Source of the DNA: a virus
Lineage: Duplodnaviria > Heunggongvirae > Uroviricota > Caudoviricetes > Peduoviridae
DNA length: 33,585 nt
Virus record (IMG/VR): IMGVR_UViG_3300029650_000190
Strand: one strand, 5' to 3'
The notes beneath the pieces were generated by a model. That model saw only the letters and a list, made by a program, of their open reading frames with translations. It made no database searches and was not told the DNA's origin. Below, in pieces: positions 1-33,585 of the stretch (position 1 is the first letter of the stretch; every line of letters begins with the position of its first letter). The translations under genes and the position numbers were made by a program.

Positions 1-903
1 TTATGAAAGCATAGACCGTTTACCCTCCCTGGGTACGACGGAACAGGGGTCCTGATGGATAATCACATCCGATCCCGGAAAACGCCGTAAAATAGCCTGC
101 TCTACCTGATCCGCCACCATATGTGCCTGAACCAAAGGCAGAGAGTCTTCCATTTCCAAATGAATCTGAATAAAGCGGGTCGGCCCTGACTGCCGCGTGC
201 GAAGATCGTGAGCGCCGCTAACACCCGGCCAGGAAGTCACGATATCAATAATTTCTTGCCGTTCCTCATCAGGTAATGCGCGATCCAGTAATGACTGTAC
301 CGCCTCATATCCCATGCGTAACGCGCTATATAAAATATAGATGCCGATTCCCAATGCAAACAGAGCATCGGCGCGATGCCAGCCGTACCAGGACAACCCC
401 AGCGCCAGCAGAATTGCGCCGTTCATCATAACATCAGACTGGTAATGTAGCATATCAGCCCGCACCGCCTGGCTTTGCGTCCGGCGCACCACCCACCGCT
501 GAAACGAGACAAGGATAATCGTACAAATTAGCGCCACAATTGTCACGATAACCCCGACGCCTGGATCTGTCATCGGTGTTGGAGATATCAGATGTTGAAT
601 ACCCGTCAAAAAGAGGAATAGTGCCGAACCGGAGATAAACATACTTTGCGCCAGCGCCGCGAGGGACTCAGCTTTACCGTGACCAAACGAGTGATTATCG
701 TCGGCAGGTTGCAGGGAATATCGCACCACCAGTAAATTCGTCAACGACGCGCCGATATCCACCAGCGAATCCACCAGCGCGGCGAGAATACTCACCGACC
801 CGGTATACCACCATGCAAAAATTTTAATCAGCAATAGCAGTGAAGCCATCGCCGTTGCAGCAATCGCCGCCCGACTGACCAGCCGTCCATAAGATTGATT
901 CAT
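1..903 (-). CDS. fieF: Cation diffusion facilitator family Fe/Zn efflux transporter FieF (YiiP); host chromosomal gene
   Basis: ORF 1..921 minus; the translation from [10 protein letters not shown]... (300 aa) matches E. coli FieF as I recall it; start moved to the internal Met at 903; stop TAA at 1..3. Confidence 0.9.
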
Positions 904-984
904 AAATACTCCCGCTATCAACTGACGCTAGTATAACGGAAGCAAATCATCTGCAATGCATTAAGCAGCAGGCAAATTGAGGAT

Positions 985-1011
985 AAAAAAAACCCCCACA
1001 TCATGTGGGGG
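985..1011 (-). terminator. Rho-independent terminator (8-9 bp GC-rich stem cccccaca/tgtggggg followed by a U8 run on the minus strand); possibly the host cpxP 3'UTR terminator
   Basis: Plus strand 985..992 is a8, 993..1011 is cccccacatcatgtggggg; on the minus strand this is hairpin then UUUUUUUU. Lies between the prophage end and the fieF promoter region. Confidence 0.6.
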
Positions 1012-1109
1012 AAGACAGGGATGGTGTCACAAAAAAGCACCTAACCTGATGATATAAATGGATTTATGTCAACCGCTGTCCACATAGCGTCCACATCGAC
1101 CATAAATAA

Positions 1110-1136
1110 AGCCCCTCAACTGAGGGGCTATTTTTG
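1110..1136 (-). terminator. Hairpin immediately downstream of ogr (agcccctca/tgaggggct stem) with flanking T-rich tracts; likely ogr/late-operon terminator at the prophage end
   Basis: Perfect 7-9 bp inverted repeat at 1110..1129, followed by atttttg on plus and ttatttatg on minus; starts 4 nt after the ogr stop. Confidence 0.5.
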
Positions 1137-1139
1137 TGA

Positions 1140-1358
1140 TCACATCCACATAATTTGCTGCCCTGACGGCAACGGGTGCGGCCTTACGGCGTGGACTTCT
1201 CCCGGCTTCACGATGTATCGCTGTACCGACTCATAAGTGATGAACGTGGCGCTGCAATTCACGTTCTGGCACTGGTGATAACGCTCTTTTGTCGTGTCAG
1301 TGATATAGCGACTTGTACGCGCATGTGCGGCATGCTGGCATAAAGGACAATGAAACAT
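1140..1358 (-). CDS. ogr: Late gene transcription activator Ogr (C4 zinc-finger, 72 aa)
   Basis: Translation MFHCPLCQHAAHARTSRYITDTTKERYHQCQNVNCSATFITYESVQRYIV... matches P2 Ogr; CxxC...CxxC zinc-binding pattern; start moved to Met22 of the 93-aa ORF. Confidence 0.9.
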   Translation of the reverse strand: MFHCPLCQHAAHARTSRYITDTTKERYHQCQNVNCSATFITYESVQRYIVKPGEVHAVRPHPLPSGQQIMWM

Positions 1359-1439
1359 CGCGAGCACCTCTTCCGGTTTTGTTGATGGTGCCATTTTAGT
1401 TAAATTACCCTTATAAAACAAACAGATAAAATAAAAACA

Positions 1440-2603
1440 TCACTCATCATCTTCTGTTTCGTACTCCACATCAGAAAGCCTTACCTCAAGCTCTAAGGAC
1501 GTCGTGAAGCCGCTATTATTCAGAAAATGTGTCACCTTAGTGATTGTCCAGTCCTGCTCGTCTATGACGCGCTTAAAGCCTGACACTTTGACCGGCGTTT
1601 CCGTGTAAATATCTGCCCGACCGGTAGCCAGACTGATGGAGAACTCCGCCACACCCCGTTGCAGTTTATCCCACTTCGCCTGAGCGGCGCGCATGGCCTG
1701 CGCTTTCGTGGCATATACCGTAGTCAGGGCAAAAACGTTGTCAGCCTCACCGGCCATGTATTCACCTTCGCGCGCTTCCGGTACTTTTGGCGCTTTCTTC
1801 TGCGTGACCGGTTTCGCTTTCGGGTGCTCCAGTGCGCGCAGGTGTTTTTCTTTCTTTTTGCGTTTCAGTTTTACCTTCTGCTTTTGCGGCTTCGGGTCTT
1901 TGGTATGTAACCACTTTGCCGTTACGCCGGTGTAAGCTCCACGGTCAGCAATCGCAAAATGATGACGGTCGCCGTCGCTGCGGGTGATGGTAATCTGCGG
2001 GATTTTTTTACCGCTGGCCGTCACCCCCTGCCCCGCTTTGAGAAACAACAGTTTTCCCATTTTTACCGACACCTCACCGCCGTTGCGTTCTGCAAGGCGG
2101 GTCAGGAATTTTGCATCAGACTCCTGCGACTGGTCGATGTGCGGAATTTTAATTCCGGCCAGTGACGGAGCGACACTGGCTTCCAGCCTGTTACGGGAGG
2201 CTATCGCCTCAACAATCGCACCGAGCGTGGTGTCATGCCATGAGCCTTCCCGGCGGGAATTGAGCGTCCCGCGAAAATCTGCACTCCGGGCGCGGATGGT
2301 GACCACATCCGGCGCGCCCCGGTGTTCAACCTCATCAACGGTGAATTTCCCTTTGCATACCAGGGCAAAACCTTTCCAGCCGATATACACCGTCAGGACA
2401 GCGCCACGAACCGGCAGCCCAACCTGCCCGTCGGCATCGTTCAGTTCAATATCAAGCTGATCAGCCTCAAAGCCCCGGTTATCCGTCAGGGTCATGCTCA
2501 TCAGACGGTCGCTGATATTGCCGGTAATATCCCTGCTGTCGAGCATCAGCATGTAATCCGGCGTCAGCGTACTGCCTGCATCAAATGTCAGCGCATCCAG
2601 CAT
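1440..2603 (-). CDS. D: Tail protein D (Phage_GPD / late control D family)
   Basis: 387-aa ORF in the P2 gpD position between ogr and U; sequence recognised as P2 gpD-like. Confidence 0.9.
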   Translation of the reverse strand: MLDALTFDAGSTLTPDYMLMLDSRDITGNISDRLMSMTLTDNRGFEADQLDIELNDADGQVGLPVRGAVLTVYIGWKGFALVCKGKFTVDEVEHRGAPDVVTIRARSADFRGTLNSRREGSWHDTTLGAIVEAIASRNRLEASVAPSLAGIKIPHIDQSQESDAKFLTRLAERNGGEVSVKMGKLLFLKAGQGVTASGKKIPQITITRSDGDRHHFAIADRGAYTGVTAKWLHTKDPKPQKQKVKLKRKKKEKHLRALEHPKAKPVTQKKAPKVPEAREGEYMAGEADNVFALTTVYATKAQAMRAAQAKWDKLQRGVAEFSISLATGRADIYTETPVKVSGFKRVIDEQDWTITKVTHFLNNSGFTTSLELEVRLSDVEYETEDDE

Positions 2604-3096: not shown

Positions 3097-5544
3097 TTAA
3101 CCGTCATGCATCATGCTGGCACGAGCGCGCGCACGTTTATCCCGCTCGTATTTTTCGAGCGCATCCTGTAACTGGCGGTCAAGCTGTGTCCCCGGCGCAG
3201 TACCACCCGTCAGGCTGATGTGATATTCGTTTTTACTCTGGTCCACATAAGAGCGGCCAGCCGGTGCCGTGACCGGCTGATAAGCCTGATAGCCTGCATA
3301 AGAGCTGGTCGCCGGAATATAACCACCGGTGCCATACGTGGCGGCATGAGTTCTGGCGGCGGTCTGGTCAAGTGTGTCTGACTCTTTGTTGATGACCCCG
3401 AGCTTTTCCAGTACCCAGTCAATACCGCTGCGCAGTTTGTTGAACGCATTAAGCGGCAGCATCAACGCGTCAGCCAGTGCCTGCCCGAACATGACACCCG
3501 TGTCACGACAACGGTTCAGGGTGTCCTGGGTGGCTTTGACGGGGGCAATCAGGTTTTTAAACCACTGCCACGCGGCCTGTAACTTTTCGCCCAGCCAGTC
3601 AAACACCGGTTTCAGTGGCGTGAACAGCTCCCCCACCGGCGCAAATGCCGCTTTCAGCCCTTTCACCACACCGCCAAAGAATGCGCTGACAGGCTCCCAG
3701 TATTTACGGATAAGCAACGCCCCGGCGACAATGGCGGCCACCACGGCCACAACCGGCCAGCTAATCGCCCCGATGGCCGTCATAACGGCACTACCAACCG
3801 TCGTGAAGATTGCCCCCATTGCGCCTGCTGCCGCGATGATGGCATTGATGCCGGTGATAACCGGCCAGGCTACAAGACCAATGGCACCGATGATGCCAGT
3901 AAGCGCCAGCGCGCCACCGGCAATGAGGCCAATGGTTGACGCCAGTGATTTGTTTTTCTGGATCCAGCCGTCGAGTTTTAACACATACTTTGTGGCCGTC
4001 TGCGTGAGCTTACGCAGTGCGCCTTCCTGCTGGTCAAACAGGTCAGTCCCCACCGCCTCATAAGCGGACTGAAACTCCTTAAAGTCACCGCCGAGGTTGT
4101 CCTGCATGATATTTACCAGCTCGGCGGTCTTCCCGTCTGAGGCTTTAAACGCAGCGGTCAGTTTGTCCAGCTTTCCGGTTGAGGCGGCAGTCATCAGCAC
4201 GGCGGCGGCTGAGCTGGCCTCCTCCCCGAAAATAGTTTTCATGTATTCAGCCTGCTGGGCAGTACCGAGCCGGTTTTTCTCAAAACTGGCCTGCATTTCT
4301 TTCAGAATGGTAAATATTGGCCGGGTGTTTCCCTTGCTGTCTGAGGTTTTCACTCCAAGCTCTTTGAGTGCATCCCATGCTTTTCCCGTCGGTGCCTGCA
4401 GGCGGCTTAACACGGCACGGCTTCCCGTCCCCGCCATTGAGCCTGTGATTTTTGCATCATGCAGAGCCCCGACCATTGCGGCGGTTTCTTCAATGCTGAC
4501 ACCGGCATTTTTTGCCACAGGTGCGGCATAGGTCAGCGCATCGCTCATGCCATCAAAATCGGCGGCGGTTTTGTTCATCGTCATGGAGAGAACATCCCCG
4601 ATATGAGCGACCTTATCGTTTGAAAGCTGAAAGGCGGATTTCATCCCCATCAGCAGGGCGGCGTTTTCTTCCATCGTGCGGCGGTTCGCCAGCGCCATAT
4701 TCAGCGTGACTGGCGTTGCCGCCTGAATGGCATCAACATCCCCACCCGCTTTCGCGATGATTATCTGTGCACCGGCCGCATCATCCGCCGAGGCGGCGGT
4801 ATTGTCGCCGAGCTGGCGCGCCTGTTTGCGTAGTGCGGTCATTTCGGCGGAGTCTTTTGCCACTCCGAGCACGGCCTGCAATTCTGAGTTTTTCTGCGCA
4901 AACTCATAACCGGGCATCAGCAACTTAACTCCGGCCATCGTTCCCGCCGCCGCAATCCCCACACCGGTAGCGCCCACTGAGGCCATATTTCCGGCCAGTT
5001 CCTTGCCTGCCTGATAACGCTGTTTTACTGCGTTAAGTTTTGCCTGTTGCGCACTGACACGCGCCAGCGCGTCACGCTGACGGTTAAGCTGTGCGGTGGT
5101 TTCACTGATACGGTTTTTCAGTCCCTGCTCATCATGTGCAAGATTGCGGGTATTAATTCCCACAACGGCCAGTTCCCGCTGCTGGCGTTTAACGGAATCC
5201 GTCAGGCGGTTATATTTCGCCTGTAAGTCCTCCGCCGCACGCTTCGCGGATTCCAGCACTTTCGCCTGAGCACGTGTCGGACGTTCGGTGTTTTTAAACT
5301 GTGTGGCAAGGGCTTCGGCCTCCTGCCGTGCCTTTTCAAGTGCATGACCAGTCACGGCGAGCTGTGCACTGGTCTTGCGAAATCCCTCAATACGGGATGC
5401 CTGACCGTTCAGCTCGCGCAGTGATTTTTGTGTTTCCCGGATATCCCCCGACAGCGATTTGCTCGCTGTGCGGATGGATTTAAACGGGCGGGATGCCTGG
5501 TCAACAGCCCTGAGCAATACCTGTAATTTTACATTGTTACTCAT
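3097..5544 (-). CDS. T: Tail tape measure protein T
   Basis: 815-aa ORF, Ala/Gly-rich with coiled-coil N-terminal half and hydrophobic glycine-zipper segment (…IGLIAGGALALTGIIGAIGLVAWPVITG…), typical of P2 gpT. Confidence 0.9.
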   Translation of the reverse strand: MSNNVKLQVLLRAVDQASRPFKSIRTASKSLSGDIRETQKSLRELNGQASRIEGFRKTSAQLAVTGHALEKARQEAEALATQFKNTERPTRAQAKVLESAKRAAEDLQAKYNRLTDSVKRQQRELAVVGINTRNLAHDEQGLKNRISETTAQLNRQRDALARVSAQQAKLNAVKQRYQAGKELAGNMASVGATGVGIAAAGTMAGVKLLMPGYEFAQKNSELQAVLGVAKDSAEMTALRKQARQLGDNTAASADDAAGAQIIIAKAGGDVDAIQAATPVTLNMALANRRTMEENAALLMGMKSAFQLSNDKVAHIGDVLSMTMNKTAADFDGMSDALTYAAPVAKNAGVSIEETAAMVGALHDAKITGSMAGTGSRAVLSRLQAPTGKAWDALKELGVKTSDSKGNTRPIFTILKEMQASFEKNRLGTAQQAEYMKTIFGEEASSAAAVLMTAASTGKLDKLTAAFKASDGKTAELVNIMQDNLGGDFKEFQSAYEAVGTDLFDQQEGALRKLTQTATKYVLKLDGWIQKNKSLASTIGLIAGGALALTGIIGAIGLVAWPVITGINAIIAAAGAMGAIFTTVGSAVMTAIGAISWPVVAVVAAIVAGALLIRKYWEPVSAFFGGVVKGLKAAFAPVGELFTPLKPVFDWLGEKLQAAWQWFKNLIAPVKATQDTLNRCRDTGVMFGQALADALMLPLNAFNKLRSGIDWVLEKLGVINKESDTLDQTAARTHAATYGTGGYIPATSSYAGYQAYQPVTAPAGRSYVDQSKNEYHISLTGGTAPGTQLDRQLQDALEKYERDKRARARASMMHDG

Positions 5545-25363: not shown

Positions 25364-27571
25364 ATGAAATTAAAACTCAAAAACGTAACAAGCTATCACA
25401 AAGAATATTTTACTGAGTTAGATTTGTCCAAAAAAATAAACATATTGTATGGACAAAATGGTTGTGGAAAATCTACCATATCAAATTATTTTTACAATCC
25501 TAAAGACACCGCCTATAAGGAATGTGTATGCGAACCCATCGATAATTATCGAACTCTAGTCTACAACTCAAAATATATAGAAGATAATTTTTATAATGCA
25601 AAAGAGCAAAAAGGTATATTTACCCTCAGTCAAAAAAATGCAGAAATTGAAAAAATACTATCTGAAAAAGAAGAGCTAAACAAATCACTAGCACATCAGC
25701 ATAAAGAAAAAAAAGAATTTATCGAAAAACTCCATGAAGCGAAAAACAAAAAAGAGCAAGAGTGCATAAATTCCATATGGAATAAGACCAAAGACATAAG
25801 AAGCTCAGAATTGAAACAATTAATGAAAGGTCAAATAGGAAGCAAAGCCACTTTCTATTACCATCTAAAAAAGTATACTCCACAAACTGATATTGATATA
25901 AAATCATTAATACAATCTTATAGCAAACTTCTCGAGTTTAAAGGAAAAGAAATACCTCTGATAACTCCTTATAAGGGATATATTTTATCTGAAGAAACTC
26001 AAAAAACATTATCCACACCAATTATTGACTCTAGCAACAGCTATTTATCTGAAGCAATAAAAGAGCTACAAAATATTGATTGGATTAAACAAGGCAAAGA
26101 GCAATATTTAAATGGAGAAATTTGTCCATTTTGCCAAAGGGACACAATAGATGATAATTTTATTAAAGCCATTGAATCTATCTTTGATGAAACATACTCA
26201 AGAAAAGTAGATCAAATACAACAAATAAAACTATCTTATGATAATGCCATTAAAAATCATCATGAAGAAATAAAGAGTAACATTTTATCATGTGAGGTGA
26301 TAAACCAAGACGAAAAAGATAAAAGCCTTTCATATGTTAAGGCATTAGAAACTATTGCAGAAAAAAACATTAAATTATTGGATAATAAAATAGAAAATCC
26401 ATCTATAAGCATTGTGCTGGAATTTGAAAAGTCGATAGAGGAAAAACTATTAGAAGATATAGAACAATACAACAATAAAATTAACGAGTTCAATGACAAA
26501 GTAAAAAGATTTAATAATAGCGAAATAGATATTCGCGAAAAGATGTGGGCAGCAATCAGAGACTTATGTAGCGCGGAATTTGAAATACTATCAGACTGCG
26601 AAAGAAACTTTCAAGAAAAATATGAAAACGCTGCATCCTTCATGCAGGAAATAAAAAGAAAAGAAGAGATCAACACAAATGAAATCAATGAACTAAGAAA
26701 TAAAACATCAAGTGTAGATGCAACAATAGATGCAATAAACTCACGACTTAAATTTCTTGGCATCTCTGGTTTTAGCATTGATAAACACGCCGAACTCAAA
26801 GATAAGTATATAATATCCCGCGATGGAAACAATAGAAAACAAGATGTATATCGGTCATTAAGCGAAGGTGAAAAAACATTAATAACGTTTCTATATTTTT
26901 TAGAATGTTGCAAGGGTAAAACAAATGAAAATGATACTGATATGCGTGATAAACTCATAGTTATAGATGATCCTATATCAAGTCTATCTCAAAACTATGT
27001 TTTCGACATAGCATCCATGATCCATCATGACATAATTGAAAAAGGCATTTCATCAAAAATAATAATCCTCACCCATAATCTTTATTTCTTCCATGAGTTA
27101 ATAAAACTCGCCTCTAAAAAAGGAATAAACTTTAAACGGGACTACTTTCTTGGCAGAATAAACAAAAATGAATTTAGCACCATTAGTGCTATAGATAAAA
27201 AAAGTGTGCAAAATGAATACCAATCCCTTTGGCAAGTATTAAAAGATGCAAAAGAGAAAAAAATCAACAAAATAATAATCCCAAATATTATGAGAAATAT
27301 ACTTGAGTATTACTTTGCATTTGTTCATAGAACTGACGCATTAGAGGCAAAGCTTACTGAATTAACAAATGATGAAAATAACAGCCATTTCCGTGCCTTT
27401 TACAGATATATAAACAGAGGCTCTCACTCCGACGCAATAAATATAACAGATATGGGCGATATTGAACCTGAGAAATACTTAGAACTCTTGCACAAAATAT
27501 TCAGAATGACAGGTGATGAGAAACATTACTTAACAATGATGGGTGAAGAAGAGGTAAATGTTACCGCTTAG
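25364..27571 (+). CDS. Cargo gene at the cos/A (tin-old) variable locus: 735-aa split ABC-type ATPase with long inserted region carrying a CxxC motif and a C-terminal putative nuclease domain; RloC/PrrC-like (AAA_13-type) candidate anti-phage abortive-infection protein
   Basis: Walker A GQNGCGKST (aa 30-38, nt 25451..25477); CPFC (aa 254-257, nt 26123..26134); signature-like LSEGEK (about aa 498-503); Walker B DKLIVIDD (aa 529-536, from nt 26948); H-loop IILTHN (about aa 565-570); C-terminal domain with RNILE (R-x3-E) and downstream His residues; strongly AT-rich relative to the phage backbone; opposite orientation to A, like P2 old. Confidence 0.8.
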   Translation: MKLKLKNVTSYHKEYFTELDLSKKINILYGQNGCGKSTISNYFYNPKDTAYKECVCEPIDNYRTLVYNSKYIEDNFYNAKEQKGIFTLSQKNAEIEKILSEKEELNKSLAHQHKEKKEFIEKLHEAKNKKEQECINSIWNKTKDIRSSELKQLMKGQIGSKATFYYHLKKYTPQTDIDIKSLIQSYSKLLEFKGKEIPLITPYKGYILSEETQKTLSTPIIDSSNSYLSEAIKELQNIDWIKQGKEQYLNGEICPFCQRDTIDDNFIKAIESIFDETYSRKVDQIQQIKLSYDNAIKNHHEEIKSNILSCEVINQDEKDKSLSYVKALETIAEKNIKLLDNKIENPSISIVLEFEKSIEEKLLEDIEQYNNKINEFNDKVKRFNNSEIDIREKMWAAIRDLCSAEFEILSDCERNFQEKYENAASFMQEIKRKEEINTNEINELRNKTSSVDATIDAINSRLKFLGISGFSIDKHAELKDKYIISRDGNNRKQDVYRSLSEGEKTLITFLYFLECCKGKTNENDTDMRDKLIVIDDPISSLSQNYVFDIASMIHHDIIEKGISSKIIILTHNLYFFHELIKLASKKGINFKRDYFLGRINKNEFSTISAIDKKSVQNEYQSLWQVLKDAKEKKINKIIIPNIMRNILEYYFAFVHRTDALEAKLTELTNDENNSHFRAFYRYINRGSHSDAINITDMGDIEPEKYLELLHKIFRMTGDEKHYLTMMGEEEVNVTA

Positions 27572-32535: not shown

Positions 32536-32604
32536 CTCTATATAAAGATTACATTTTCACCATTTGCTACCAAGATGGTGAATACAGCGCCGGAGGGCTT
32601 TCTT

Positions 32605-33585
32605 ATGGCAATTAAGAAGCTCGATGATGGTCGCTATGAAGTGGACATTAGACCTCGCGGTCGCGACGGAAAACGCATCCGCAGGAAATTCGAAAGAAAA
32701 GCTGAAGCACTAGCATTTGAGCGATACACAATCGCCAATGCCAGTCAGAAAGAATGGGGAGGCCAGCGAGCAGACCGCCGGACTTTGAGTGAGTTGCTGG
32801 ACATCTGGTGGAAATATCACGGGCAAAACCACGAGCATGGAACAAAAGAGTTTAATCATCTACTCAAAACCATCAGCGGCATAGGTGATATACCAGTGAG
32901 CAGGATGAGCAAAAGGGCTTTGATGGATTATCGTTCCATGCGACTACGTGATGGTATCAGTGCCGCAACGATAAACCGTGACATGTACAGATTATCCGGC
33001 ATGTTCACAAAATTAATTCAATTGGATGAATTTTCCGGGCAACACCCAATTCACGGACTGCCGCCACTGGCGGAGGCCAACCCTGAAATGACGTTCCTGG
33101 AAAAAGCAGAAATCGAAAAACTGTTAAATGTTTTGGCTGGTGATGACTTACTTGTCGCGCTTTTATGTCTGAGCACTGGAGGAAGATGGACGGAAGTTGC
33201 CACGCTAAAACCAGCACAGATTACAAATTGCAGGGTTACCTTCCTGAAAACCAAAAACGGTAAAAAGCGAACCGTGCCGATTTCTGAGGAACTGGAGAAA
33301 AAAGTTAAAGAGGAGGCCAGCGCCAAATTATTCAAAGTTGATTATGAGAAATTTTGCGGGATTTTACGCAGAGTGAAACCTGATATACCACCCAATCAGG
33401 CAACCCACATCCTGCGGCATACATTCGCAAGCCATTTCATGATGAATGGGGGCAATATAATCGCACTGCAACAGATTCTGGGACATGCGAGCATTCAGCA
33501 GACGATGGCCTATGCGCACCTTGCGCCTGACTATCTGCAAAATGCCGTCGCTCTGAATCCACTAAAAGGCGGAGTGACGTTATAA
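32605..33585 (+). CDS. int: Tyrosine-type site-specific integrase
   Basis: 326-aa product from MAIKKLDDGRYEVDIRPRG...; C-terminal catalytic region with ...HILRHTFASHFMMNGGNIIALQQILGHASIQQTMAYAHL (H-x-x-R and catalytic Tyr); GGAGGG RBS before ATG 32605 (alternative ATG at 32575); stop is the last codon of the window. Confidence 0.85.
   Translation: MAIKKLDDGRYEVDIRPRGRDGKRIRRKFERKAEALAFERYTIANASQKEWGGQRADRRTLSELLDIWWKYHGQNHEHGTKEFNHLLKTISGIGDIPVSRMSKRALMDYRSMRLRDGISAATINRDMYRLSGMFTKLIQLDEFSGQHPIHGLPPLAEANPEMTFLEKAEIEKLLNVLAGDDLLVALLCLSTGGRWTEVATLKPAQITNCRVTFLKTKNGKKRTVPISEELEKKVKEEASAKLFKVDYEKFCGILRRVKPDIPPNQATHILRHTFASHFMMNGGNIIALQQILGHASIQQTMAYAHLAPDYLQNAVALNPLKGGVTL

Follow-up and report, generated by a model that had tools for sequence, protein, structure and literature searches.

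A 5'-truncated copy of the small RNA gene cpxQ at the predicted fieF-side attachment junction of a Wphi-type P2-like prophage in Escherichia coli

Genes and hairpins at the fieF end of the prophage

The stretch of DNA analyzed here, referred to below as the window, is 33,585 nucleotides in length and begins with fieF, the gene for a CDF cation exporter, which is host DNA and is present as a full coding sequence on the minus strand (1..903, with the ATG at 903 and the stop codon at 1-3) according to both the list of open reading frames and the annotation of matching genomes. Over 1..903 the identity to prophage-free genomes is 100%. The adjoining segment, 904..981, comprises the native 5' and promoter region of fieF; it is identical in the empty integration site and in K-12, is absent from the attP of phage Wphi, and was left unaltered by the insertion. 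The first gene on the phage side is ogr (1140..1358, minus strand), a late-gene activator with a zinc finger (72 aa plus stop; Pfam Ogr_Delta, E 1e-21) that is annotated as ogrK or ogr in matching genomes. A tyrosine integrase gene (32575..33585, plus strand; Pfam Int_N and Phage_integrase) lies at the far prophage end, and the window ends with its stop codon. The longest open reading frame for the integrase is 336 aa, compared with a RefSeq product of 326 aa (981 nt), which leaves the start codon uncertain.

Read on the minus strand, the region between ogr and fieF has a simple order: ogr (1358-1140), a hairpin (1129-1110), a pair of repeats (1095-1077), the 17-mer GACACCATCCCTGTCTT (1028-1012), a second hairpin (1011-993), a T8 tract (992-985) and, 81 bp after that tract, the fieF ATG. 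The repeats at 1077-1095, TGTGGAC and TGTGGACA, are direct, lie 11 bp apart and match the published consensus for P2-type integrase arm sites; an AT-rich stretch separates them from the 17-mer. They fall within 1029..1109, minus strand, which is 98% identical to the P arm of the Wphi attP and which, in alignment, is missing from empty sites and found in attP. Its first part, 1029-1048, is specific to Wphi-type phages, and remnants of P2 elsewhere in the chromosome match only from 1049 on.

The hairpin nearer to fieF has the form CCCCCACA-TGA-TGTGGGGG and is followed directly by the T8 tract, so that 985..1011 of the minus strand contains a GC-rich stem (1004-1011 paired with 993-1000), a short loop (1001-1003) and a U8 tract (985-992), and is predicted to be an intrinsic terminator, namely that of cpxP and the small RNA CpxQ. 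The hairpin nearer to ogr, AGCCCCTC-AGTT-GAGGGGCT at 1129-1110 on the minus strand, begins 10 nt past the ogr stop codon and is kept in Wphi (L004 650-669, where L004 is the att region of that phage). It is terminator-like in both directions, with interrupted T tracts on both strands (TTTATTTAT after it on the minus strand and ATTTTTGTGA on the plus strand), and the T tract toward fieF is weak. A terminator scan of 700-1600 returned 3 sites, both hairpins among them, against 0.8 +/- 0.9 in shuffled sequences. The fold of 904-1139 has an energy of -80.6 kcal/mol (z = -4.2; 0 of 200 shuffles as good), and folds of the isolated hairpins gave z = -2.3 and z = -4.6 to -6.2. A scan of the minus strand from ogr to the 17-mer for sigma-70-like promoters found no site, and no evidence of an independent promoter for the sequence that follows.

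No tRNA or tmRNA gene was found in the window with ARAGORN, and integration into a gene of that type is thus not indicated. A search with Rfam at gathering thresholds, covering the window and both the empty and the occupied loci, left the cpxP 3' UTR without a match, for which reason the boundaries of CpxQ were taken from the K-12 annotation. The same database places naRNA4, a REP-like nucleoid-associated RNA, between yiiM and cpxA at 1340-1417 of L001, the sequence of the other prophage end introduced below; it is unrelated to the attachment site.

Elsewhere in the window, a plus-strand gene at 25364-27571 encodes a 735-aa AAA_13 ATPase, for which PADLOC gives a match to the candidate defence family PDC-S06 (E 3e-254) and a weaker one to PrrC. 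With the portal gene on one side and the replication gene on the other, it occupies the place of old/tin in P2 and is probably an anti-phage cargo gene. A minus-strand open reading frame of 345 aa at 8528-9565, between the tail sheath and tail-fibre assembly genes (the Z/fun position of P2), gave neither a match in PADLOC nor, above the curated cut-off, one in Pfam, and is left as unexplained cargo. In a sister prophage at the same site in strain WCHEC005215 (L003 3412-5567, L085 2050-6915), a gene for a 213-aa hypothetical protein and a copy of IS150 are found between the integrase arm sites and ogr, and the replication gene is split by an IS21-family element, that is, the prophage is decaying. 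The spacer between ogr and the attachment site serves as a second cargo slot.

The attachment core and its position in cpxQ

Window positions 700-1450 were compared by megablast with 5,426 complete E. coli genomes. For the genomes that lack the prophage, the match covers 700-1028 and goes no further, and 904..1139 is therefore not uninterrupted host DNA; the entire query is covered in 690 genomes. Free P2-like phages (Wphi, L-413C, fiAA91-ss and many others) match 982-1450. Host homology that extends to 1028 and phage homology that begins at 982 overlap over 982-1028, and this overlap defines the core.

The core was then compared with three further sequences: the other prophage end in strain SCU-102, whose genome is 100% identical to the window (L001), an empty cpxP-fieF site (L002), and L004. 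The same 47-mer, GACACCATCCCTGTCTTCCCCCACATGATGTGGGGGTTTTTTTTATC, is found unchanged in each of the four, at 982-1028 (minus strand) of the window, 4173-4219 of L001, 2283-2329 of L002 and 751-797 of L004. The sequences flanking it are exchanged as attB (B-O-B'), attP (P-O-P'), attL (B-O-P', on the side of cpxP and int) and attR (P-O-B', in the window), so that 904..981 corresponds to B', 982..1028 to O and 1029..1109 to P. The direct repeat at the other junction, which the preliminary description had proposed to look for beyond the integrase, is the L001 copy. It sits between cpxP and int, outside the window and 117-163 bp past its end, and in L001 the int stop codon is at 4336, which places int next to the cpxP-side junction. 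Arm repeats are present on both arms, at 1077-1095 in the window and as two copies of TGTGGACA at L001 4303-4322.

A core shared by four sites, an adjacent tyrosine integrase, arm sites of the P2 type and a location between cpxP and fieF together point to an attachment site, and sequence comparison places 904-1139 at its fieF-side junction. We regard it as very probable that 904-1139 is the attR (P-O-B') of a Wphi-type P2-like (Peduovirus) prophage integrated in cpxQ, where the tyrosine integrase would have recombined phage attP with a bacterial attB inside the small RNA gene. The 47-bp repeat gives exact borders for the prophage, which at this end lie at 982-1028. Much of the preliminary description, made from the window alone, agrees with these results: it had placed a prophage-host junction upstream of fieF, with integration in the cpxP 3' UTR and without a tRNA gene, and two hairpin terminators, one following ogr and the other, on the fieF strand, being that of cpxP and CpxQ, which the empty-site and K-12 sequences bear out.

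In K-12, cpxQ (b4716) is annotated by curators as a non-coding RNA of 58 nt, with its start 9 nt past the stop codon of cpxP and its end on the final T of the U tract. The core equals CpxQ nt 15-58 plus ATC. Among its bases are 17 that lie outside the hairpin and belong to the CpxQ seed region. CpxQ is processed by RNase E from the cpxP 3' UTR, depends on Hfq, and represses nhaB, skp and other mRNAs for inner-membrane proteins (PMC9438474, PMC4817254), in part by pairing through its 5' end, for example U7 with nhaB (PMC10250213).

Alignment with the prophage-free locus, suggested earlier as a way to see whether cpxQ is split or reconstituted, shows that it is reconstituted next to cpxP: at that junction host nt 1-14 are joined to the core, and the full 58-nt cpxQ and the cpxP terminator are rebuilt. 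In the window copy the terminator and nt 15-31 are present, nt 1-14, the 5' pairing region, are missing, and phage DNA stands in front, making it a 5'-truncated duplicate. This copy has neither the 5' end generated by RNase E nor the 5' pairing region, and it is 33 kb from the cpxP promoter. Only the cpxP-side copy lies directly 3' of the cpxP stop codon with the RNase E 5' end; the window copy is not a cpxQ gene. Both host genes are left intact by the insertion, and in lysogens a cpxQ fragment left behind, and no new regulatory element, accounts for the hairpin upstream of fieF.

Position of strand exchange

The terminator loop is polymorphic in E. coli, ATG(A/C)TG, and its variable base can be used as a marker for the crossover. 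The base is window position 1001 (minus strand), core position 28 and CpxQ nt 42; it is A in the window and C in K-12 (L172 770-775), which differs from the 47-mer at this one core base. The attR described above occurs in about 788 of the 5,426 complete E. coli genomes (14.5%), always at the identical junction position, the matching attL in 765, and an empty site in about 4,590. Counts of perfect matches, which are not phylogenetically independent, were 894 C and 3217 A among the roughly 4590 empty sites (C about 20%), 153 C and 413 A among the roughly 788 fieF-side junctions (P arm plus core), and 0 C and 358 A among the 765 cpxP-side junctions (core plus P' arm). None of the 62 phage records with core and P' arm has C, and Wphi has A. 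The frequency of C on the fieF side, approximately 19-27%, thus matches that of the host (approximately 20%), and the cpxP side always has the phage allele.

The BLAST search of complete E. coli genomes found no C allele among the 765 cpxP-side copies, a null result that depends on the seeding of the search: with the T8 run masked a 28-nt word is needed, and a C-bearing cpxP-side junction would have given a seed and an E-value within the threshold, as happened for other queries with the C allele. The pairing of both junctions within a genome was read directly in one strain, WCHEC005215, which has A on the cpxP side and C on the fieF side; elsewhere it is deduced from the marginal counts. Among IMG/VR contigs the C allele occurs in four, each of them a fieF-side junction, and roughly two dozen cpxP-side junctions there all have A.

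This asymmetry between the junctions places the crossover on the cpxP-proximal side of position 28, within GACACCATCCCTGTCTTCCCCCACATG. The interval that contains the strand exchange is window 1002..1028 (minus strand; core positions 1-27), which includes the invariant GACACCATCCCTGTCTT and a candidate inverted repeat, GACA-CCATCCC-TGTC (1014-1028). Strand exchange to the left of core position 28 is supported by the data and the exact cleavage sites are inferred; from geometry and conservation, the CCATCCC spacer between GACA and TGTC appears to be the most likely spot. With the crossover to the left of position 28, the window retains the host's original terminator hairpin, and the cpxP/CpxQ terminator of lysogens is the copy supplied by the phage. 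Wphi-type lysogeny converts nt 42 of the functional CpxQ to A. The hairpin sequence at 985..1011, which the preliminary description took as host DNA, occurs in attP as well as in attB; by the loop polymorphism, the window copy is host-descended and the copy attached to cpxP comes from the phage.

A scan of one genome per species found relatives of the integrase, with 47-100% identity by the figures of the scan, directly downstream of cpxP in Escherichia, Kosakonia, Citrobacter, Yokenella, Pseudocitrobacter, Serratia, Yersinia, Morganella, Rosenbergiella, Acerihabitans, Brenneria, Xenorhabdus and Photorhabdus, that is, in 13 named genera of Enterobacterales, with the same convergent arrangement and repeats of the TGTGGAC type. 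These genera, together with an unclassified Proteobacteria MAG, provide 18 loci, all 18 with an unchanged 17-mer GACACCATCCCTGTCTT and 17 with an unchanged 31-mer from CpxQ nt 1 onward, while the terminator hairpin has at least 9 different sequences, some of them related by compensatory changes. This pattern is consistent with an integrase that recognizes and recombines the invariant CpxQ segment, the hairpin being carried along as cargo that restores the gene.

Exchange could instead be sought within the stem-loop itself, where CCCCCA and TGGGGG would be the core-type sites and CATGATG a 7-bp overlap, and the window hairpin would be a chimera of phage and host. This inverted repeat, perfect over 6 bp and with 7 bp between its halves, does have a geometry typical of tyrosine-recombinase cores. 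The A/C base would, however, lie inside this overlap, where heterology should either block recombination or put either allele at both junctions, whereas C is found in 153 fieF-side copies and in 0 of 765 cpxP-side copies; moreover, it is the hairpin that varies between genera, and the 17-mer to its left that stays invariant beside related integrases. We consider a crossover inside the hairpin improbable and reject it on the allele asymmetry.

Considerably less credible still is the placement of the core between the two hairpins, at about 1012-1110, as the preliminary description had it, with the terminator at 985-1011 being pure host DNA outside the recombination site. The hairpin is the host cpxP terminator by sequence, and 1012-1028 does belong to the core, but only that part of the proposed interval stands: host homology ends at 1028, and the remainder, 1029-1109, is P arm, absent from empty sites and present in attP. 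The whole of 982-1028 with the hairpin is, besides, carried by Wphi and more than 60 other phage genomes, and the alignment of attB, attP, attL and attR excludes the interval 1012-1110. Least plausible of all, to the point of being negligible, is a phage terminator that resembles the host hairpin by convergence at a junction formed by illegitimate or homologous recombination, since short GC-rich terminator hairpins can resemble each other in part by chance but here 47 bp with 17 non-hairpin bases are exactly identical, the junctions are the same in about 788 genomes without varying in position between lysogens, and a tyrosine integrase is adjacent with arm-type sites on both sides.

Exchange to the left of position 28 has a consequence at each junction. 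At the cpxP side the phage supplies a replacement terminator, by which CpxQ is rebuilt and the cpxP terminator kept, and the host's own terminator stays with fieF as the 5'-truncated cpxQ copy, preceded by the P arm and the ogr terminator. Prophage transcripts of ogr and the late operon heading toward fieF would meet the ogr hairpin first and the strong CpxQ terminator second, and these two consecutive terminators may shield fieF from read-through; as fieF also retains 125 bp of unaltered upstream DNA, the insertion should be neutral for it. In the circular phage both hairpins would keep transcripts of ogr and the late genes from entering int antisense, and int transcription could end at the ogr hairpin, which has a T tract on the other strand too. 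On the cpxP side, int transcripts would reach the CpxQ hairpin in the non-terminating orientation.

About one E. coli strain in seven has the non-coding arm of its Cpx stress response partly encoded by a phage, and we see a slim chance that this is not neutral, by any of three routes. The truncated copy (nt 15-31 and the Hfq-type terminator), which is preceded by the U-rich phage sequence GC/UUUUUUGUG, could be released from read-through ogr or late transcripts as a CpxQ-like small RNA under phage control. C and int transcripts that start at the lysogenic promoter face no terminator in this orientation and could continue, antisense, into CpxQ and the 3' end of cpxP, dampening both. In hosts with the C allele, the alteration of CpxQ nt 42 by lysogeny could be a third route.

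Spread of cpxQ as a target and comparison with known systems

Some hairpins are common to distant hosts. At cpxP-side junctions, CCCCCTCATGATGAGGGGG is shared by Kosakonia and Serratia (L007 and L012), and CGCCCTCCATGATGGAGGGC by Yersinia and Brenneria (L011 and L017). Such identity across host families hints that the hairpin moves with the phage and not with the host. In IMG/VR the CpxQ core is also joined to several unrelated arms (L087 7400-7595, L090-L169), with identity to CpxQ beginning at CACCATCCC; examples are ...TTTCTTCA|CCATCCC, accompanied by TGTAGTC/TGTAGAC repeats, and ...TAAATCA|CCATCCC. These arms indicate that one or more further phage types also target cpxQ. Related integrases occupy this place in at least 13 genera of Enterobacterales, and what makes cpxQ a portable landing pad may be its extreme conservation.

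The feature is the long-known attB of Wphi and is ordinary as such; only the reading of it as cpxQ and the mapping of the crossover are new, and they are modest refinements, which will not surprise specialists in phage integration. Liu and Haggard-Ljungquist in 1999 reportedly described 47 nt of perfect identity between Wphi and K-12 at 88.6 min; K-12 as currently sequenced is one core base off, so that the reported figure may be inexact. The genome paper of E. coli W locates prophage Wphi1 (P2) at cpxP-fieF and further P2-type prophages at the cyaR RNA, the rybB ncRNA and the ssrA tmRNA (PMC3032704). The Wphi site is given by Nilsson and colleagues as K-12 coordinate 4104392, in a paper that also has the P2-type arm consensus tgTGGaCa and the core that L-413C shares with Wphi (PMC3448106). 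The Wphi descriptions consulted give cpxP-fieF or the K-12 coordinate and either predate CpxQ or omit it. We found no paper on CpxQ with prophages or attB that ties the RNA to a phage attachment site, and the mentions of attB in this literature, as in PMC10250213, are of lambda attB in reporter constructs. The use of a natural loop polymorphism to map the crossover to the invariant CpxQ segment goes beyond what we found in print.

Among known systems the closest are Wphi, Wphi1 and L-413C, all of which have the same 47-bp core; with the Wphi system the prophage described here also shares the P and P' arms (98% identity), the order ogr-att-int-C and the chromosomal site, and it differs in being a separate isolate with its own cargo genes. 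With respect to CpxQ itself, the core is nt 15-58 of the K-12 gene, which is intact in its full 58 nt at the cpxP-side junction.

Integration at the 3' ends of tRNA and tmRNA genes, as by 186 (tRNA-Ile) and by Fels-2 and SopEphi (ssrA), follows the same plan, that is, the target is a conserved gene for a structured RNA, attP holds the 3' part of the gene, and the gene is restored at one junction with a truncated duplicate at the other (PMC3448106). In cpxQ, by contrast, the target is an Hfq-type small RNA derived from a 3' UTR, and the duplicated part includes an intrinsic terminator. The P2-like sites at cyaR and rybB are likewise in small RNA genes, in keeping with a general preference of this phage group for the 3' ends of small RNAs, although their core sequences and integrase specificities are different. 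The classical Wphi site between cpxP and fieF is thus the small RNA gene cpxQ, and it joins the cyaR, rybB and ssrA sites of other P2-like phages.
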